Assembly: GCA_951406725.2 (NCBI GenBank)
Contig: OX597840.1
Span: 11,222,001 to 11,286,000 of the forward strand
Direction: 5' to 3'
Length of the DNA: 64,000 bases
Origin: Octopus vulgaris
Taxonomy: Eukaryota
In this document: one piece after another, positions 7,341 through 33,961 of the stretch
How the letters are laid out: every line of letters begins with the position of its first letter
How positions within the stretch are numbered: position 1 is the stretch's first letter
Made by a program: the position numbers and the translations under genes
The notes under the pieces: generated by a model
What the model saw: the letters and a program-made list of their open reading frames with translations, nothing else
The model's database searches: none
What the model was told of the DNA's origin: nothing

Positions 7341-8379
7341 CCTCAGTCACAATAAGGAAATTGTTTTGTTTTCTTTTTTTCCCAAAAAGCGAAAATATGT
7401 TATTAATACGGTTTTGAAGGTATGCTTATGGTTGTTTAACCGTAACTTTAATCTTCTGCAAAATGTGTGGTTCACCCGTGTTCAAAAGTATTGATTTGTC
7501 CACCTGTGATTGATATTATCGGTGTTCATATCTAAATTAATCCACGTGTGATTATTGTGTTTCCATATTTCGATTATCTTTTTACTAAAAAAAACATTTT
7601 TTTAAAGTCTTTCTTAATTCTGAACACAAATCTTGCTGGATTTGCTGTTGTTGCTGGCGGTGATGGTGGTTGTGTCGGAGCAGTTATTTTTGTTGCTATA
7701 GGTTGTGTTGGTAATGGTGTTGTTGGTAGTGATGTTGGTATTGGCGGTGATGATGGCAGTAGTGGAGGCGGTGGTGGTGTCAGTGTTGTAGTTGCTGTTG
7801 TTCTTGGAGGTGATGGAGCTTAGCCGTCCCTGGTCAGCTCTGATTAAGCGTAACTATGATCAAAGGCGCTACAACCATGACCATCTCGTCTTTTTAATGA
7901 CCATCTCCTCCTTTTATTATCCAGTATTTCCTCTTATTTAATGCAGTGTGATTTCAAGCAGATTTAGCTGATATTTCTAGCAGGTCGATTGACCACTCAG
8001 AGGCTTCCTCGTTAGTTCGTATTGCTGTTGTGGTTGTTGTTGTTAATATTTTTGTTGTTTTGTTATTGTTGCTGTTTAGCCCCAGGTATGTTCTGATCAG
8101 GCAAACCTATGACCAAAGACATTCCAACCATAACTCTCCCGTTTTATTAGCAGGCAAAGTATAACTCGGACTACAATATCCAATGTGTCCATTTTTTAGA
8201 TCAGTTAGACCTACGACCAAGAGACATTCCACTCGTGACCATCGCCCTTTATTCTTCACATACAGTGCATCTAGGATCACATCACCCTCTTGTTGTTGGT
8301 GATGGTGGTGGTGGTCATGGCTGTCGTGGCCGTGGTCGTCGTCATCGTAGTGTGGTGTTATAACTGTTGTTGTTGTTGC

Positions 8380-8735: not shown

Positions 8736-9119
8736 TTATCTACAACCACAGCTATCAACTATCATGTTAGGCAAGTCTCTTTGCTCGATGACCGCATCAT
8801 CGTTGAAGTAAAGCAGCGATAGGGAACTAAGAGCTGTCGGGGTACAACAGATGATCTGCGAACTGTTTTGTTTCAGGTTCGAAACCATGGAAGTGTGTGC
8901 GTAGTCTTGTAATAATTTGATATCACATTCCCCAGAACAATAGTTGGCGCGATACGTCGATGGAATTATTATCCAGTTCCATCCAAAATCAGCGAAAGTA
9001 ACTTCCATTGGATACAAACAGCAACGGTTCTCGACTTTGGTGGCATCACACTGGAGTCCAACTCCTCTTTTACTTCTTTTGCGCCGGTTTGGAACCATCT
9101 GGATTTCCAAATACGGTTT
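8736..9119 (-). CDS. Last exon of a myostatin/GDF8/11-like TGF-beta ligand (furin site plus mature 9-Cys domain)
   Basis: Acceptor ttttctttctaccatttccag|AAA, phase 0. Reads KPYLEIQMVPNRRKRSKR followed by a 109-aa mature peptide GVGLQCD...RCCLYP...FGWNWII.P..YRANYCSGEC...HT...CCTPT...LYFN...PNMIVDSCGCR* with 9 Cys, collinear with myostatin. Confidence 0.96.
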   Translation of the reverse strand, partial: KPYLEIQMVPNRRKRSKRGVGLQCDATKVENRCCLYPMEVTFADFGWNWIIIPSTYRANYCSGECDIKLLQDYAHTSMVSNLKQNSSQIICCTPTALSSLSLLYFNDDAVIEQRDLPNMIVDSCGCR

Positions 9120-9384
9120 CTGGAAATGGTAGAAAGAAAAAATAAATAATTAAAAATAACGTTAAAAACAACATTGAAAAAAAATAATAATAACAACACA
9201 ACATAAGTTCAACACCTGGAATCTATAGCAGAAGACACTTGCCCAAGGTGCCACGCAGTGGGACTGAACCCGGAACCATATGGTTCGTAAGCAAGCTACT
9301 TACTACACAGCCACTCCTACGCCTACTGTTTAAGTGAATCTAACGGTTTTTGTGTTTCTTAAATGGCTTACAAACACTTTCTGG

Positions 9385-14102: not shown

Positions 14103-14180
<78 letters not shown>

Positions 14181-17778: not shown

Positions 17779-18556
17779 TTACTACCCACAAGGGGCTCAA
17801 CACAGAGTGGACAAACAAGGACAGACAAACGGGTTAAGTCGATTATATCGACCCCAGTGCGTAACTGGTACTTAATTTATCGACCCCGAAAGGATGAAAA
17901 GTAAAGTCGACCTCGGTGGAATTTGAACTCAGAACGTAGCGGCAGATGAAATACCTATTTCTTTACTACCCACAAGGGGCTAAACACAGAAGGGACAAAC
18001 AACGACAGACAAACGGGTTAAGTCGATTATATCGACCCCAGTGCGTAACTGGTACTTATTTAATCGACCCCGAAAGGATGAAAGACAAAGTCGACCTCGG
18101 CGGAATTTGAACTCAGAACGTAGCGGCAGATGAAATACCTATTTCTTTACTACCCACAAGGGGCTAAACACAGAGAGCACAAACAAGGACAGACAAACGG
18201 ATTAAGTCGATTATATCGACCCCAGTGCGTAACTGGTACTTATTTAATCGACCCCGAAAGGATGAAAGACAAAGTCGACCTCGGCGGAATTTGAACTCAG
18301 AACGTAGCGGCAGATGAAATACCTATTTCTTTACTACCCACAAGGGGCTAAACACAGAGAGCACAAACAAGGACAGACAAACGGATTAAGTCGGTTATAT
18401 CGACCCCAGTGCGTAACTGGTACTTATTTAATCGACCCCTAAAGGATGAAAGGCAAAGTCGACCTCAGCGGAATTTGAACTCAGAACATAAAGACAGACG
18501 AAATACCGCTAAGCATTTCGCCTGGCGTGCTAACGTTTCTGCCAGCTCACCACCTT
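17779..18556 (-). mobile_element. Head-to-tail tetramer of SINE family B (184-bp period)
   Basis: actacccacaaggggct recurs at 17781, 17965, 18149 and 18333. Only the last unit carries the full 5' head. Confidence 0.9.
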
Positions 18557-18766: not shown

Positions 18767-19018
18767 TAGATACGTGTGTGTGTATGTATGTGTGTGTATG
18801 TGCGCGCTTCATGGTCTGTGTGTGTGTGTATTCCCTTTGAACACAGTATATGACCAGTCTTTATTTTGTAGAATCCTTACTCACCAGAAACCCTATTCAC
18901 TAGAAACTATATATGGATAATCAATGGTCCCCTTTTTTTATATATATATTTCACATTGTTTTTCTTTCTTCCTTCCGTATTTTTTTCTTATCTTTCATTC
19001 CGATTTTTAAAAATTCTA

Positions 19019-19067
<49 letters not shown>

Positions 19068-19672
19068 TTCGTTTTCCTTCTCTTTCTCTCTCTCTCACTC
19101 TCTTCTGGGATCCTTTCCCATCTTTGTGACATTTCGTTCTCGTCTCATTTACAAACTATTTCGTCGTGTTGTCTTTCGCTACAATTACAACAAAATGGCG
19201 GCTATCTTATTACCATCACGCTGAGCCAGACGAAACTAAGACAAACGCAACACACCACATGATATAAACACACACACACATACACACATACACACACATA
19301 CACACATACATGCTCATAAGCCATAGCTTATGAATACATATATATGTATATTATATATATATATGCGTGTGCTTGTGTGTGTGTATTATATACATACACA
19401 CACATATATAAGCATATATACATATATACATACATGTATATATGCTATATGCATACTTATACTTATATATTTATACGTATACCTATGTAAATATTATATA
19501 TGTACATATATATATATGTGTATATGTATATATATTCATATGTATGTGTATGTACATTTGTATATATAAGTTTATATATACGTAAGTATATACACATATA
19601 TACATACATATATAAATGCATCTACACACACACACGCACGCACACACACATATATATGTATGTATATACATA

Positions 19673-19889
19673 CGAAGGGATGCTGAAAAGTTCCTGCCTT
19701 TGGGTAAAAGAAAATACAGGAGGATCATTTAATTATGATTTTATTCAACATATTCTCCTCTCAGATTCACACATTTATTGCAGTGGTCCTTCAGTTTTTC
19801 TAAGCTCCATAAAAAAATTCGTAAGATTTGGCCTCCAACGAGGCCTTCCACGAGAGCCTTAAAATGAGAAATTTTTCACACACCCCTCG
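19673..19889. mobile_element. Mariner-derived MITE
   Basis: TA|cgaagggatgctgaaaagtt...aatttttcacacacccctcg|TA. A related copy in opposite orientation lies at 36322-36537. Confidence 0.75.
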
Positions 19890-19917
19890 TATACGTATAT
19901 AAATATACACGTATATA

Positions 19918-19977
<60 letters not shown>

Positions 19978-20246
19978 GGAAAATTATTCCAAACTTACAG
20001 GGAAAAATTTAATTTTAGAAATACTAAATTAAATTTCACAAAATATAATATATATATATATATAAATTATAAATATATATATAAATTATATATATATATA
20101 TATATAACTTAGAAAAAAACACCTTTCATTATCATATCATCGTTATATGTTTTATCTTATATTTAATCTTTCTATAATATGTAATTTTCTAGATGGTATA
20201 ATTTAATTTTTCATCTTTGAATTGATGAAAGGTGTTTTTTTTTCTA

Positions 20247-20309
<63 letters not shown>

Positions 20310-20498
20310 TATTATATATACGCAGTTGACTGGTTCTGTGGGTCACCATCCATGTTGAAATCGTGTAAAACCAGGCAGATATATATTTTATTCCATTAAT
20401 AAAAATGCATAAAATTTGCTCAATTACTAATCGAAATGGAGATATTAAATACGATTATAAATTCTCGTATATTCCATCTTCTGTCTTTCATTTGCTGT

Positions 20499-20596
<98 letters not shown>

Positions 20597-20659
20597 TTGT
20601 TGTGTCTAGGTAGAATCATTATAGCCAATATAATTGACAGACGCACTGGTTCAATTCTA

Positions 20660-21335
20660 CACACAGAGGGGTCACCTGGTACTTATTTAATCGACCACGA
20701 AAAGACGAAAGGCGAAGAAGACCTCGGCGGAATTTGAACTTAGAACGTAGCGGCAGACGAAATACCGCTAAGCATTTCGCCCGGCGTGCTAACGTTTCTG
20801 TCAGCTCGCCGCCCTAAACGCTTTTTATTTCTTTATTGCCCACAAGGGGCGAAACATAGAGGGGACAAACAAGGACAGAAAAAGGGATTAAGTCGATTAT
20901 ATCGACCCCAGTGCATGACTGGTACTTAATTTATCGAATCCGAAAGGATGAAAGGCAAAGTCGACCTCGGTGAAATTTGAACTCAGAACGTAGAGACAGA
21001 CGAAATACCTATTTCTTTACTACCCACAAGGGGCTAAACACAGAGGGGACAAACAAAGACAGACATAGGTATTAAGTCGATTACATCGACCTCAGTGCGT
21101 AACTGGTACTTTTTTCATCGACCCCGAAAGGATGAAAGGCAAAGTCGACCTCGGCGGAATTTGAACTTAGACGGTAACGGCAGACGAAATACCGCTAAGC
21201 ATTTCGCCCGGCGTGCTAACGTTTCTGCCAGCTCGCCGCCCTCAAAGTTTTATATTTCTTTTTTGCCCACAAGTGGCTAAACATGAAGGGTACAAACAAG
21301 GACAGACAAAGGCGTGCTAACGTTTCTGCCAGTTC
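20660..21335 (-). mobile_element. Cluster of tandem SINE family B copies
   Basis: Repeated cores; the same gaaatacc|tatttctttactaccc junction (21002-21026) as in the 17.8-18.5 kb array. Confidence 0.85.
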
Positions 21336-21406
21336 GGGTGAGCACCATTGTCCAATAAAAATGCTTTCAATGGGTAAAAATTGAGGGCAGTTAATGCTTC
21401 ACTTAC

Positions 21407-21620
21407 ATATCCTCTGTTTTCGTGGTAGTCAGACAGGAGCACAATATGGTTGACCCCGTATTTATTATTGGCCGACGCCTATATATATGTATATCATATA
21501 TATATATATATTTATTAGTTTGGTCGTTTCAAAAGTGTTCCATTTTCCTTTGCCTTCGCTGTTTCTCTCCAGCTTCACTTTGCGCGTCCGAAGAGATTTA
21601 TTTGTCGATAGACAATTTAC
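21407..21620 (-). CDS. Penultimate (propeptide) exon of the myostatin-like gene, frameshifted as given
   Basis: Acceptor ttcttttccacccttgtttgtag|GTA. Reads VNCLSTNKSLRTRKVKLERNSEGKGKWNTFETTKLIN, then 31 nt of TA-rich sequence, then in the +1 frame ASANNKYGVNHIVLLSDYHENRGY|gtaagt (phase 0, joins KPYLEI). 214 nt is not a multiple of 3. Confidence 0.85.
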
Positions 21621-21778
21621 CTACAAACAAGGGTGGAAAAGAAACAGATGAATTGTGTTGTATTATATTAAACCATCTTAATATACCAATATAAATGTCT
21701 TTTATTATATCCCAAACACCATTTAAATATACCAATATATACTTGTTTTTGTTACGTTCAAAACATCATCTTAATATA

Positions 21779-21832
<54 letters not shown>

Positions 21833-21837
<5 letters not shown>

Positions 21838-22321
21838 GTTATCGCCATACTAATATGGCATTCTTATAAAAATAAGAATAAAGCTGTCCGCTTATTAGCT
21901 CCATGAGGCCATCGCCTTAAGTTAGCTATTTGATACACAAACTGTATCCATATAACCTTCGAACAAGGGAGGTCAGTCGCTCCACACTACTTGATCGACA
22001 GCTACAGACGCGTTTCGGGATATTGCCCCTTGTCAATGTAGCGTAGTCAGACCAGTAGGTGTCGCTTCCGACTATCTCTGTTCGAAGGTTTTATTTACCT
22101 AGTTTCGGTGGAATACATCCACTTGTTTTCAATAATAGAAATATTAAAATTACTAAGTCTCTCTAAAAGAGAACACGGCAGCGTTCCTGGAAATTAATAG
22201 TTATCGCCATACTAATATGGCATTCTTATAAAAATAAGAATAAAGCTGTCCGCTTATTAGCTCCATGAGGCCATCGCCTTAAGTTAGCTATTTGATACAC
22301 AAACTGTATCCATATAACCTT
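21833..22321 (-). mobile_element. 362-bp unit with 127-bp direct terminal repeat (retrozyme/pseudo-LTR-like)
   Basis: 21833-21959 matches 22195-22321. A hammerhead-like motif lies between them; (TA)n flank. Confidence 0.75.
22001..22042 (-). ncRNA. Hammerhead-like motif (variant core)
   Basis: gctaca-TTGACAA-ggg-gcaatat-ccc-GAAAC-GC-GTC-tgtagc. Perfect 6-bp helix I, palindromic ACGCGT helix III; core has U3/A8 instead of C3/G8. Confidence 0.65.
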
Positions 22322-22370
22322 ATATAGCAATAATAAATCTCTAAACGAGATATAAACAGTAACTGCTCTA

Positions 22371-22521
22371 TAACATAAGGGGCATCAGCCATCTGAATGT
22401 GGCTAGGGACAGGGCAAGCGGTGGGGGTGTTACTGATGATCGCCTGGGGCTAAATGCATCAGTAACACCCCCACCGCCCTGCCCTGTCCCTAGCCACATT
22501 CAGATGGCTGATGCCCCTTTG

Positions 22522-22525
<4 letters not shown>
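22371..22525. repeat. Foldback of the element family seen at 33185-33778
   Basis: About 65-bp arms aaggggcatcagccatctgaatgtggctagggacagggc..gggggtgttactgatg / catcagtaacaccccc..gccctgtccctagccacattcagatggctgatgcccctt. Confidence 0.85.
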
Positions 22526-23233
<708 letters not shown>

Positions 23234-23254
23234 GTATGTATGTATGTATATATA

Positions 23255-23773
23255 TTGGGTTGTCCGGAAAGTTCGTGCCGATTTATAGTAGCTTACCTTT
23301 CGACTTATTTTAGAACATGGTTGAGTCCATAAAATAGGATTTGACTACACCTCCATTTAGAGCACAGATTAAGCTATCTTTTCGTGGAATAAGGTTTATG
23401 TTCCTATGACCTGTGTTAATTTTGTAACCCTTTAAAATGTAAAAGTTCATTTTCGCCACTTGATGCTTTGGGAACCAGACAAAAATTGCTGCAGCTCGGC
23501 TGGGATGTGTTACCCCACCTTCCATATTCCCCAGATATTGCTCCTTCGGATTTTCACTTATTCGGGTCTCTGGATGACGTAAAAAGATACCTTGATGAAT
23601 TCTTTGCCATGAAACCACCTCAATTCTGGGAAAAGGGTATTTTCAAGTTAAAAGAAAGACGGAGACACATTGTGCAATAAAATGGTTCATATTTGGTTGA
23701 TTAAAAATGTAATGGCAAGTATTTATTGACCTTTTTCTTTCCTTTAAAAACCGGCACGAACTTTCCGGATAAC

Positions 23774-23777
<4 letters not shown>
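23255..23777 (+). mobile_element. Internally deleted mariner element
   Basis: TA|ttgggttgtccggaaagttcgtgccg...cggcacgaactttccggataacccaa|TA. Remnant TRQKLLQLGWDVLPHLPYSPDIAPSDFHLF...FWEKGIFKLKER. Confidence 0.92.
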
Positions 23778-23854
<77 letters not shown>

Positions 23855-23857
<3 letters not shown>

Positions 23858-24080
23858 ATGATAGATCGTTAGCTTCTACACGCATTTTTTTCTCTCCTTC
23901 TTTTTCCCTCCTTGTTTCTCTCCTTGTTTCTTTTCTGTGTATCTTTCTGTCGAAGAGCGTAAGCTCGAAACGTAAAAGACTTGTTCTATTTCTATTCCTG
24001 AGCGCCATACTAATACTTTTGCTTGTTTGTACTCCACCTGCCTTCGTCTTTTGTTTATTTTCGTAAACCTTCCCGTTATA
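23855..24080 (+). mobile_element. About 220-bp short element with hammerhead-like fold (family also at 40686-40900 minus and 54790-54985 plus)
   Basis: tcttt-CTGTCGA-a-gagc-gtaa-gctc-GAAAC-GTA-aaaga at 23942-23979; embedded in (TA)n. Confidence 0.65.
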
Positions 24081-24205
24081 TATATATAATTGTTAAGTTC
24101 TATGTTTCTAGTTTGATAATAGAGTTTATTATAAGTAAAATTATTATATTATTTATATCTTAAAAATATTGTTTAAATATTTCTGATTATATTTTAGATA
24201 TTTCA

Positions 24206-24278
24206 ATTACCTGAAGATTGACTATAACCATAACTCGAATTATTACGAATTGGACAGCCATGAAACGATCGTAGTGTT
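24206..24278 (+). ncRNA. Hammerhead motif in AT-rich short element (24090-24420)
   Basis: CTGAAGA (24211-24217)...GAAAC-GATC-GTA (24262-24273) with palindromic loop; helices I and II are eroded. Confidence 0.55.
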
Positions 24279-24587
24279 TTACTCATTATCTTTTATTAAA
24301 CTTTTAATACTTTTGATATATATTTAAAATAATATAAATTAATTAATTTTATGTATTGGCTTAAGTTTTTCACTGTTTGATTTGCCTAATAGTGGTTTTA
24401 TCTCTAATTTAATATAATATATATATATATATATATATCTTTTGTTTTGTCCCAAGTGCCATCTGAATATACTAATATATATTTGTCTTCTCGGCTTTAT
24501 AATGGAAATGATAAACATTTTACTAATTCTCTCAGGAAACACAATAATTCACAAGACATTTAGTTACGAAAGAATTAAGATACCTAC

Positions 24588-24736
24588 GTCAAGTACTGTG
24601 AACTCTTCTTCTTCTGCAGTCTGCACGGGTCGTAAATACAACCACAAAATGGCTTTCTTAATTGAATACATGTATGGTAAAAGCTTCAGTGAAAACTGGA
24701 ACGTATTTGTTAAGTTTGGGAAGGAAGTGTTTGACA
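24588..24736 (-). CDS. Propeptide exon of the myostatin-like gene
   Basis: Acceptor tttttcttctctttttcag|TG (phase 1). Reads SNTSFPNLTNTFQFSLKLLPYMYSIKKAILWLYLRPVQTAEEEEFTVLD|gtaggt (phase 0), matching myostatin FKFSSKI...VVKAQLWIYLRPV. 149 nt. Confidence 0.92.
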
Positions 24737-25176
24737 CTGAAAAAGAGAAGAAAAATTCTACGTTAGACGAAGTCCTCCATGTAATACCAACGGTTCTTGT
24801 TTGCATTTCTGGTTATGTATGGCGTTATTTTAATGAAAACAGAGCCCTGTAACAATAAAACGATTCGATTAATGTGCCCTGGAAGAGGTCACTTTTATCT
24901 AAAATCCATTTCAATGCATCTCTGGGCCACGAAACACTCTCTCTTTACTCTTTTACTTTTTTACTCTTTTACTTGTTTCAGTCATGTGACAGCGGCCATG
25001 CTGGAGCACCGCCTTTAATCGAGCACATCGACCCCGGGACTTATTCTTTTGTAAGCCCAGTACTTATTCTATAGGTCTCTCTTTTGCCGAACCGCTAAGT
25101 AACGGGGACATAAACACACCAGCATCGGTTGTCAAGCAATGCTAGGGGGACAAACACAGACACACAAACATACACA

Positions 25177-25214
<38 letters not shown>

Positions 25215-25220
<6 letters not shown>

Positions 25221-25435
25221 TAATCCAAACATGAAAACACAAAGAGAAAACACTACAACGCGAGGACGTGGAACAAATATAGTATTATTGGACGCTCAGG
25301 AAAGAAGGAAAGAAGGAGGGTTTAACGTTTCGAGCGGAGCTCTTCGTCGGAAACATAGAAGGAAAGATCCAGAGAAGGGAAGACAGAGGAAAAAAAATTG
25401 CCAACGGTGCACACGCGGTCACATTTTGAATGACC
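25215..25435 (-). mobile_element. About 220-bp short element with hammerhead-like fold (copy at 31550-31770 plus)
   Basis: gttt-CCGACGA-a-gagc-tcc-gctc-GAAACGTT-aaac at 25320-25354 (-) and 31633-31667 (+). Both lie inside the internal microsatellite of a family A SINE. Confidence 0.65.
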
Positions 25436-25444
25436 GGAAGGAAA

Positions 25445-26113
<669 letters not shown>

Positions 26114-33184: not shown

Positions 33185-33778
33185 AATAATATTTCTCTAA
33201 ATGAGATATAGACAGTAACTGCTCCATAACATAAGGGACTAAAGCCATCTGAATATGGCTAGGGACAGGGCAGGGTGGTGGGGGTGTTACTGTTGCATTT
33301 AGCCCCAGGCGAACATCAACGTCGCCAGATAGGCTTGACACCATCACGGCGTCCTCTATCCCCCCACCACCCTGCCCTGTCCCTAGCCATATTCAGATGG
33401 TTTTAGTCCCTTATGTTATGGAGCAGTTACTGTCTATATCTCATTTGGAGAATTATTATTGCTGTCGAACAGATTTTCGAAATCAGCAAATGTATTTTGC
33501 TTGAAAGTCTATATATAAATATCCTGCAGAGTGGATTGTTCGTCGAGGAAGCGGCGCCTACCATACGTTGATAATAGGCAAACACCTTGAAACCTAGGTC
33601 CGTGTGTGGTTTCCGCTTCATCGGGGAATTATCTCCCTTTGCAGGATAGAGGACGCCGTGATGGTGTCAAGCCTATCTGGCGACGTTGATGTTCGCCTGG
33701 GGCTAAATGCAACAGTAACACCCCCACCACCCTGCCCTGTCCCTAGCCATATTCAGATGGCTTTAGTCCCTTATGTAA
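33185..33778 (+). mobile_element. 360-bp tandem unit preceded by an inverted partial copy (Penelope pLTR/retrozyme architecture)
   Basis: 33361-33416 is repeated at 33721-33776. 33185-33360 is the reverse complement of 33645-33720 joined to 33361-33461. Flanked by (TA)n. Confidence 0.85.
33562..33606 (+). ncRNA. Hammerhead-like motif (variant core) at the apex of a long hairpin
   Basis: catacg-TTGATAA-tagg-caaaca-cctt-GAAAC-CTAG-GTC-cgtgtg; enclosed by atcctgca..gaagcgg/ccgcttc..tgcaggat. Confidence 0.65.
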
Positions 33779-33961
33779 TATATATATATATATTATAGGC
33801 GCAGGAGTGGCTGTGTGGTAAGTAGCTTGCTAACCAACCACATGGTTCAGTCCCACTGCGTGGCACCTTGGGCGGGTGTCTTCTGCTATAGCCTCGGGCC
33901 GACCAAAGCCTTGTGAGTGGATTTGGTAGATGGAAACTGAAAGAAATCTGTCGTATATATG

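Follow-up and report, generated by a model that had tools for sequence, protein, structure and literature searches.

Natural null alleles of myostatin are known, those of double-muscled cattle among them; they have been confirmed in the animals and come with a phenotype. The Octopus vulgaris locus described here shares with the cattle alleles a small exonic lesion that leads to a frameshift and to loss of the mature domain, but it differs from them in that every sequencing record bridging the site contradicts the lesion. A second described system is the consensus or polishing error in long-read assemblies. In the excerpted parts of 10.1101/2021.07.02.450803, corrections of homopolymers or two-base microsatellites made up about two-thirds of 993 small edits to a human HiFi assembly, and those parts also caution about repeat overcorrection and repeat shortening. 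The present case would likewise be such an error, arising at low-complexity microsatellite sequence; in contrast to a shortened repeat, a coding segment here seems to have been replaced by a microsatellite-like tract, a situation that the excerpted parts do not describe. Among the papers listed in searches on polishing errors in cephalopod assemblies, none reports this locus. In a search by titles and abstract openings, covering mainly papers outside subscription, no study of octopus or cephalopod myostatin was found. The excerpts of PMC9931865 give myostatin for crustaceans, and the cephalopod passages within them are without it.

The window, that is, the whole 64,000-nt stretch of DNA that was analysed, carries the following coding exons of the gene:

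24588..24736, minus strand: second coding exon, 149 nt, prodomain, with a phase-0 donor after 24588; located by tblastn with P0001–P0003 and by its splice sites
21407..21620, minus strand: third coding exon, 214 nt in the assembly, 222 nt in the orthologues and in contig X12 record 8
8736..9119, minus strand: last coding exon, with a basic furin-type site, a 109-aa mature TGF-beta domain, nine cysteines and the stop

The first coding exon is outside the window, about 110 kb away, with the ATG at G000:C27:11356419 in the genome searched (G000). Its 898 coding nt are open, and the hydrophobic N-terminus is a predicted signal peptide, as judged by eye. The exons at 24736–24588 and 9119–8736 are open and have GT–AG sites, so the initial annotation was right to call the flanking exons intact. 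No lesion was found elsewhere in the gene when the splice sites and the frames of the other coding exons were checked. If intact, the gene would consist of four coding exons (898 + 149 + 222 + 384 nt) and specify a protein of about 550 aa: a predicted signal peptide followed by the prodomain, the furin-type site and a mature domain with nine cysteines.

The TGF-beta domain is clear: PF00019 matches window positions 8739–9122 with 95.2 bits against a Pfam cut-off of 27. The prodomain match (PF00688) is weak, at 20.7 bits, and stays below its cut-off of 25.8. The ligand layout is nevertheless present, with residues 4–328 of P0001 aligning to pro-GDF8 and a basic furin-type site in the window's last exon. 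For P0001, the nearest intact orthologue, the best structure match is pro-GDF8 (E 7e-52), followed by GDF11 and then activin. When the genome was queried with bird GDF11, the locus ranked first with 136.9 bits against 94.1 for the next. GDF8/GDF11 is thus the best match in both directions, and by sequence comparison the locus is the genome's closest relative of myostatin/GDF11. The mature exon is 98% identical to that of P0001 (named Argonauta hians) and 87% identical to that of P0002. Nine cysteines are present in the last exon, and alignment A2 has seven invariant and two nearly invariant cysteines. The locus agrees with the myostatin (GDF8)/GDF11/myoglianin group in the nine cysteines, the furin-type site, the 109-aa mature domain and the length of the prodomain segment. 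It differs from the group in the absence of W..P..N.G from the close orthologues (0/5), in a long low-complexity first exon and in the label "BMP5-like" that P0001 carries from its source.

The locus is single-copy in the genome. A second intact copy or an uncollapsed haplotype was considered, and none was found; the next paralogue on the same contig is about 300 kb away and 35% identical. This is a second TGF-beta ligand gene on the opposite strand (L012, G000:C27:10922441–10926664), which has the 35% identity in the mature exon and ranks second for the GDF11 match. In the first coding exon (L010, G000:C27:11355522–11356419), the hydrophobic start is followed by a long low-complexity stretch rich in His, Asn and Thr. 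P0001 does not have a first exon of this type, and the O. bimaculoides record P0064 has it and then ends, so that this record consists of the first exon only.

The third coding exon is broken in the assembly, and two features describe the break:

21479..21509, minus strand: TA-like tract of 31 nt where 13 codons (39 nt; P0001 residues 166–178) are expected; likely an assembly error
21465..21467, minus strand: premature stop from the shifted frame, 58 nt upstream of the exon end; the public protein P0007 terminates there

On the minus strand the tract (21509–21479) consists of 15 A, 13 T, 2 G and 1 C, and it is bounded by an Asn codon (21512–21510) and an Ala codon (from 21478). The coordinates given earlier for a TA-like tract interrupting a myostatin-like exon are correct, and the tract can be seen in the letters of the window. 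The frameshift and stop then attributed to the tract are also there: the exon is 214 nt long (214 mod 3 = 1), the frame from its own acceptor reaches a stop at 21467–21465, and the 3′ portion lies in a different frame. The product predicted from the shifted frame would be 400 aa long, without the mature domain. In the best 31-nt segment of each coding exon, AT/TA steps number 26 of 30 in the tract exon and 17, 9 and 9 in the others, which makes the tract stand out within this gene. The tract has a TRF score of 49. Its composition is common within the window, where 54 (TA)8+ runs were counted.

Comparison with orthologous exons, suggested in the initial annotation as a check, gave a uniform expectation. 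The orthologous exon encodes 74 aa (222 nt) in all five close orthologues, and exactly 13 residues stand at the position of the tract in each of them, where about 13 had been anticipated; the segment closes with Gln in all five. The five are P0001 and four members of one 90% cluster (that of P0002, whose members we take to be cephalopods) and thus stand for two lineages. More widely, the anchoring Trp is present in 97 rows of alignment A2 (101 rows picked from 154 proteins, with short fragments excluded), and 87 of these share a segment length of 23 residues. The statement that a conserved propeptide motif had been replaced holds for the segment, which is indeed replaced, but not for the motif: W..P..N.G is absent from all five close orthologues too, and is found in 57 of the 92 other A2 rows having the anchoring Trp (57/97 overall). 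P0001, P0002 and P0004–P0006 keep the segment length without W..P..N.G, possibly a lineage-specific change of the prodomain. The predicted model of P0001 (mean pLDDT 85.1) assigns the 13 residues to the end of helix 161–169 and to half of strand 174–182. An intact protein with the true 13 residues from the same or a sister Octopus species was not found in the homologue, representative and cluster searches.

We then compared the site with public sequencing runs. Contigs of 4 of the 24 listed runs were aligned to 21340–21770. All runs are represented as contigs, in which rare variants are dropped, and the assignment of X9 and X12 to RNA is a guess backed by their spliced joins. The contig alignment skipped 48 letters over the tract as a repeat, and 4 gap rows and 2 loose ends in this stretch were dropped; the length of the longer allele is therefore seen, with its letters masked. 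Two records of probable DNA span the region with 439 letters across the 431 nt of 21340–21770: X1 record 1 (8 gaps, 1 other letter) and X6 record 10 (8 gaps, 0 other letters). The third, X12 record 8, is spliced and probably RNA (1,845 letters), and it has 222 letters across the 214 nt of 21407–21620, with 8 gaps and no other differences. All three bridging records, from three studies, are 8 letters longer than the assembly, and none of the window's own length was seen among the contigs of the four runs. The loose ends of X12 record 8 continue into the two neighbouring exons, at 24588 and at 9119, and its layout fits a complete 550-codon coding sequence with a further 87 and 105 untranslated letters. 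In X9, two pieces reach as far as the edges of the tract region and leave the tract uncovered; its record 19 has the same 24588-to-21620 join as X12 record 8. Both normal junctions are used, 24588–21620 and that from the exon to 9119.

The tract is most likely an assembly error because the independent DNA and RNA sequences carry 8 additional bases, which restore the in-frame length of the orthologues. The consensus or polishing error preferred in the initial annotation is supported by the three bridging records, and the spliced one equals the orthologous 222-nt exon. We hold it very probable that the tract reflects a mistake of the assembly and that the myostatin/GDF11-like gene is otherwise intact. 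The lesion is most likely not a real biological feature, and the gene is most likely intact. The common allele is probably open because of its length and the conserved downstream exon, and we infer an open frame for the longer allele. The assembled animal presumably carries the longer allele as well. A coding microsatellite length polymorphism, or pure TA slippage, was also considered and rejected: with four TA units added, none of 15 variants was open. If the common allele is open, it thus differs from the tract in its letters and not in length alone.

A search with words from 21400–21680 gave partial matches in 20 runs from nine studies, with a top share of 0.81 and seven runs at 0.74–0.81; these shares rest on 27 sampled words. 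Replacing the 31-nt stretch would cost about 61 of 251 31-letter words (24%), which is consistent with the best share of 0.81. None of the 20 runs with words from the region is on record as RNA. Independent samples without the variant, as an artefact predicts, are thus present in the form of all three bridging records and of the 20 runs with a word share of at most 0.81.

The same data bear on the reading of the tract as a real, rare loss-of-function allele of the assembled animal, probably heterozygous, with a product lacking the mature domain. We consider this unlikely, and with it the recent loss-of-function allele among the options raised earlier. The tract is present in the assembly and in the public proteins based on it, the flanks differ from X1 and X6 by 0–1 letters and show the assembly to be locally accurate, and contigs may omit rare alleles. 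Against this, none of the three bridging records, from three studies, carries the tract, none of the 20 runs has a word share above 0.81, and the gene has no other lesion that we found. Such an allele would go back to a break in the exon whose repair copied a (TA)n junction, perhaps one 320 nt away, an origin to which we give a similarly small chance; a look-alike template does lie nearby in the same orientation, but a complex replacement is required and simple slippage is insufficient. The stop of the null allele would lie just beyond the limit of the 50–55-nt rule of nonsense-mediated decay, a rule not known to hold in cephalopods. Were the allele real, it would amount to a natural knock-out of myostatin in a cephalopod that grows fast, and it could serve to test whether myostatin limits muscle growth in cephalopods; TA-tract junctions would then act as repair templates inside coding exons.

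A pseudogene fixed in the species would also account for a frameshift in a single-copy gene of the assembly. Runs labelled as one organism and matching the window at 0–1 differences, intron included, nevertheless show the in-frame length, and a spliced contig among them is full-length; the mature exon is 98% identical to P0001. We regard a fixed pseudogene as extremely unlikely.

Two public proteins named Octopus vulgaris, P0003 and P0007, match the exons of the window. P0007 contains the translated tract and ends at the premature stop, and P0003 splices round the tract by means of a 100-nt intron, which we interpret as the predictor's detour round the frameshift. Two sites are involved:

21479..21480, minus strand: AG, acceptor in public model P0003 and in the proposal of the initial annotation; weak, use not observed
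21577..21578, minus strand: internal GT, donor in public model P0003, which splices round the tract with loss of 36 residues; use not observed

These sites belong to a further reading, in which the tract is real and the frame is rescued by splicing from 24588 to 21478 (with loss of 50 aa) or, as in P0003, from 21579 to 21478 (with loss of 36 aa). Both joins are GT–AG and in frame; the AG proposed earlier is indeed at 21480–21479, and the 24588-to-21478 join removes 50 codons of the normal exon. The aligned part of X9 record 18 also stops at 21478, with 53 further letters unaligned beyond it, but this position is the edge of the skipped letters. Instead, the join from 24588 leads to 21620 in both X12 record 8 and X9 record 19, and X12 record 8 continues through the site. 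No exon-skipping or alternative joint at the site is listed among the contigs aligned to 21340–21770, and no transcript using the AG at 21480–21479 was seen among them. This AG has no pyrimidine tract: the preceding 20 letters include 9 pyrimidines with a longest run of 1, against 16–18 of 20 and runs of 10–17 at the three real acceptors. Either skip would delete prodomain strands 154–159, helix 161–169 and half of strand 174–182 from the model of P0001, whose pLDDT exceeds 90 in this part. Rescue by splicing, one of the options first put forward, thus finds no counterpart in the contigs and is very unlikely.

P0003 and P0007 have a short unrelated start in place of the signal-peptide exon. 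P0003 also leaves the mature-domain exon early and splices to window positions 7485–7583, with most of the ligand lost; this splice is probably a prediction artefact. The biology of the locus is itself ordinary, and the practical value lies in the corrected gene model. Surveys of TGF-beta ligands, and the design of probes or edits for a growth gene in aquaculture, could wrongly score the gene as lost. TA-like tracts in exons of this microsatellite-rich assembly should be taken as a warning and checked against the reads.

The possible source of the letters was sought under the preferred reading, an assembly error. The left edge of the tract (21496–21520) is 92% like an intronic junction over 25 nt, 320 nt away:

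21816..21840, minus strand: intronic repeat-end/(TA)n junction of family D2, a possible local source of the TA-like letters

Junctions of this type have 420 copies in the genome, against 18 for the control. The right edge resembles the junction of (TA)n with the head of a dispersed repeat; a degenerate 17-mer of this junction has 14,120 copies (control 5), and the exact 17-mer has 11 other copies (control 2). The exact 21-mer of the left edge is not enriched in the genome (6 other copies, control 29). All of these junction patterns were picked after the tract had been seen. Seven loci out of 50 weak matches were inspected, and none was a single donor carrying both flanks. As would be expected of a chimera, the tract lies nearer to a back-translated segment of the P0002 type than do 474 of 476 TA-rich controls; these were drawn from the window and overlap one another. 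This closeness was equalled by 1 of 150 shuffles and by none of 155 other 13-mers. A chimera signal was absent when the closer relative P0001 was used, with 241 of the 476 controls as close.

The data suggest that microsatellite letters were written over part of an AT-rich coding segment at the consensus or polishing stage. The true 13-codon segment would probably be AT-rich, with edges like those repeat/(TA)n junctions that are very abundant. It could have been overwritten at that stage by reads stemming from junctions of this kind, or through local misalignment of long reads to the look-alike 320 nt off. The result would be a TA-like chimera, 8 nt short. Within the error explanation, we favour overwriting by a modest margin over simple slips of base calling or consensus where the sequence is AT-rich.

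The surroundings of the third coding exon are rich in repeats. A dispersed repeat has its head directly after TA-rich tracts at window positions 14171, 25614, 25881, 30278, 33790 and 54981. At 21833–21959 and 22195–22321 there are identical 127-nt direct repeats, 362 nt apart, around a GC-richer segment and adjoining a (TA)n tract; the end of this repeat accounts for the 420 junction copies in the genome, and 21833–22321 as a whole resembles a small mobile element that has entered a TA tract. A search of 19000–26000 with Rfam gave 82 matches at E up to 1, none of which reached the gathering score, and no hammerhead. Beside a TA tract at 22377–22519 is an inverted repeat with 51-nt arms that are 90% complementary and 41 nt apart, and similar translations occur again near 33186–33501 and 33598–33795. 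The intron downstream of the third coding exon contains tandem arrays of a 184-nt unit, at 17779–18507 (4 copies) and 20826–21193 (2 copies).
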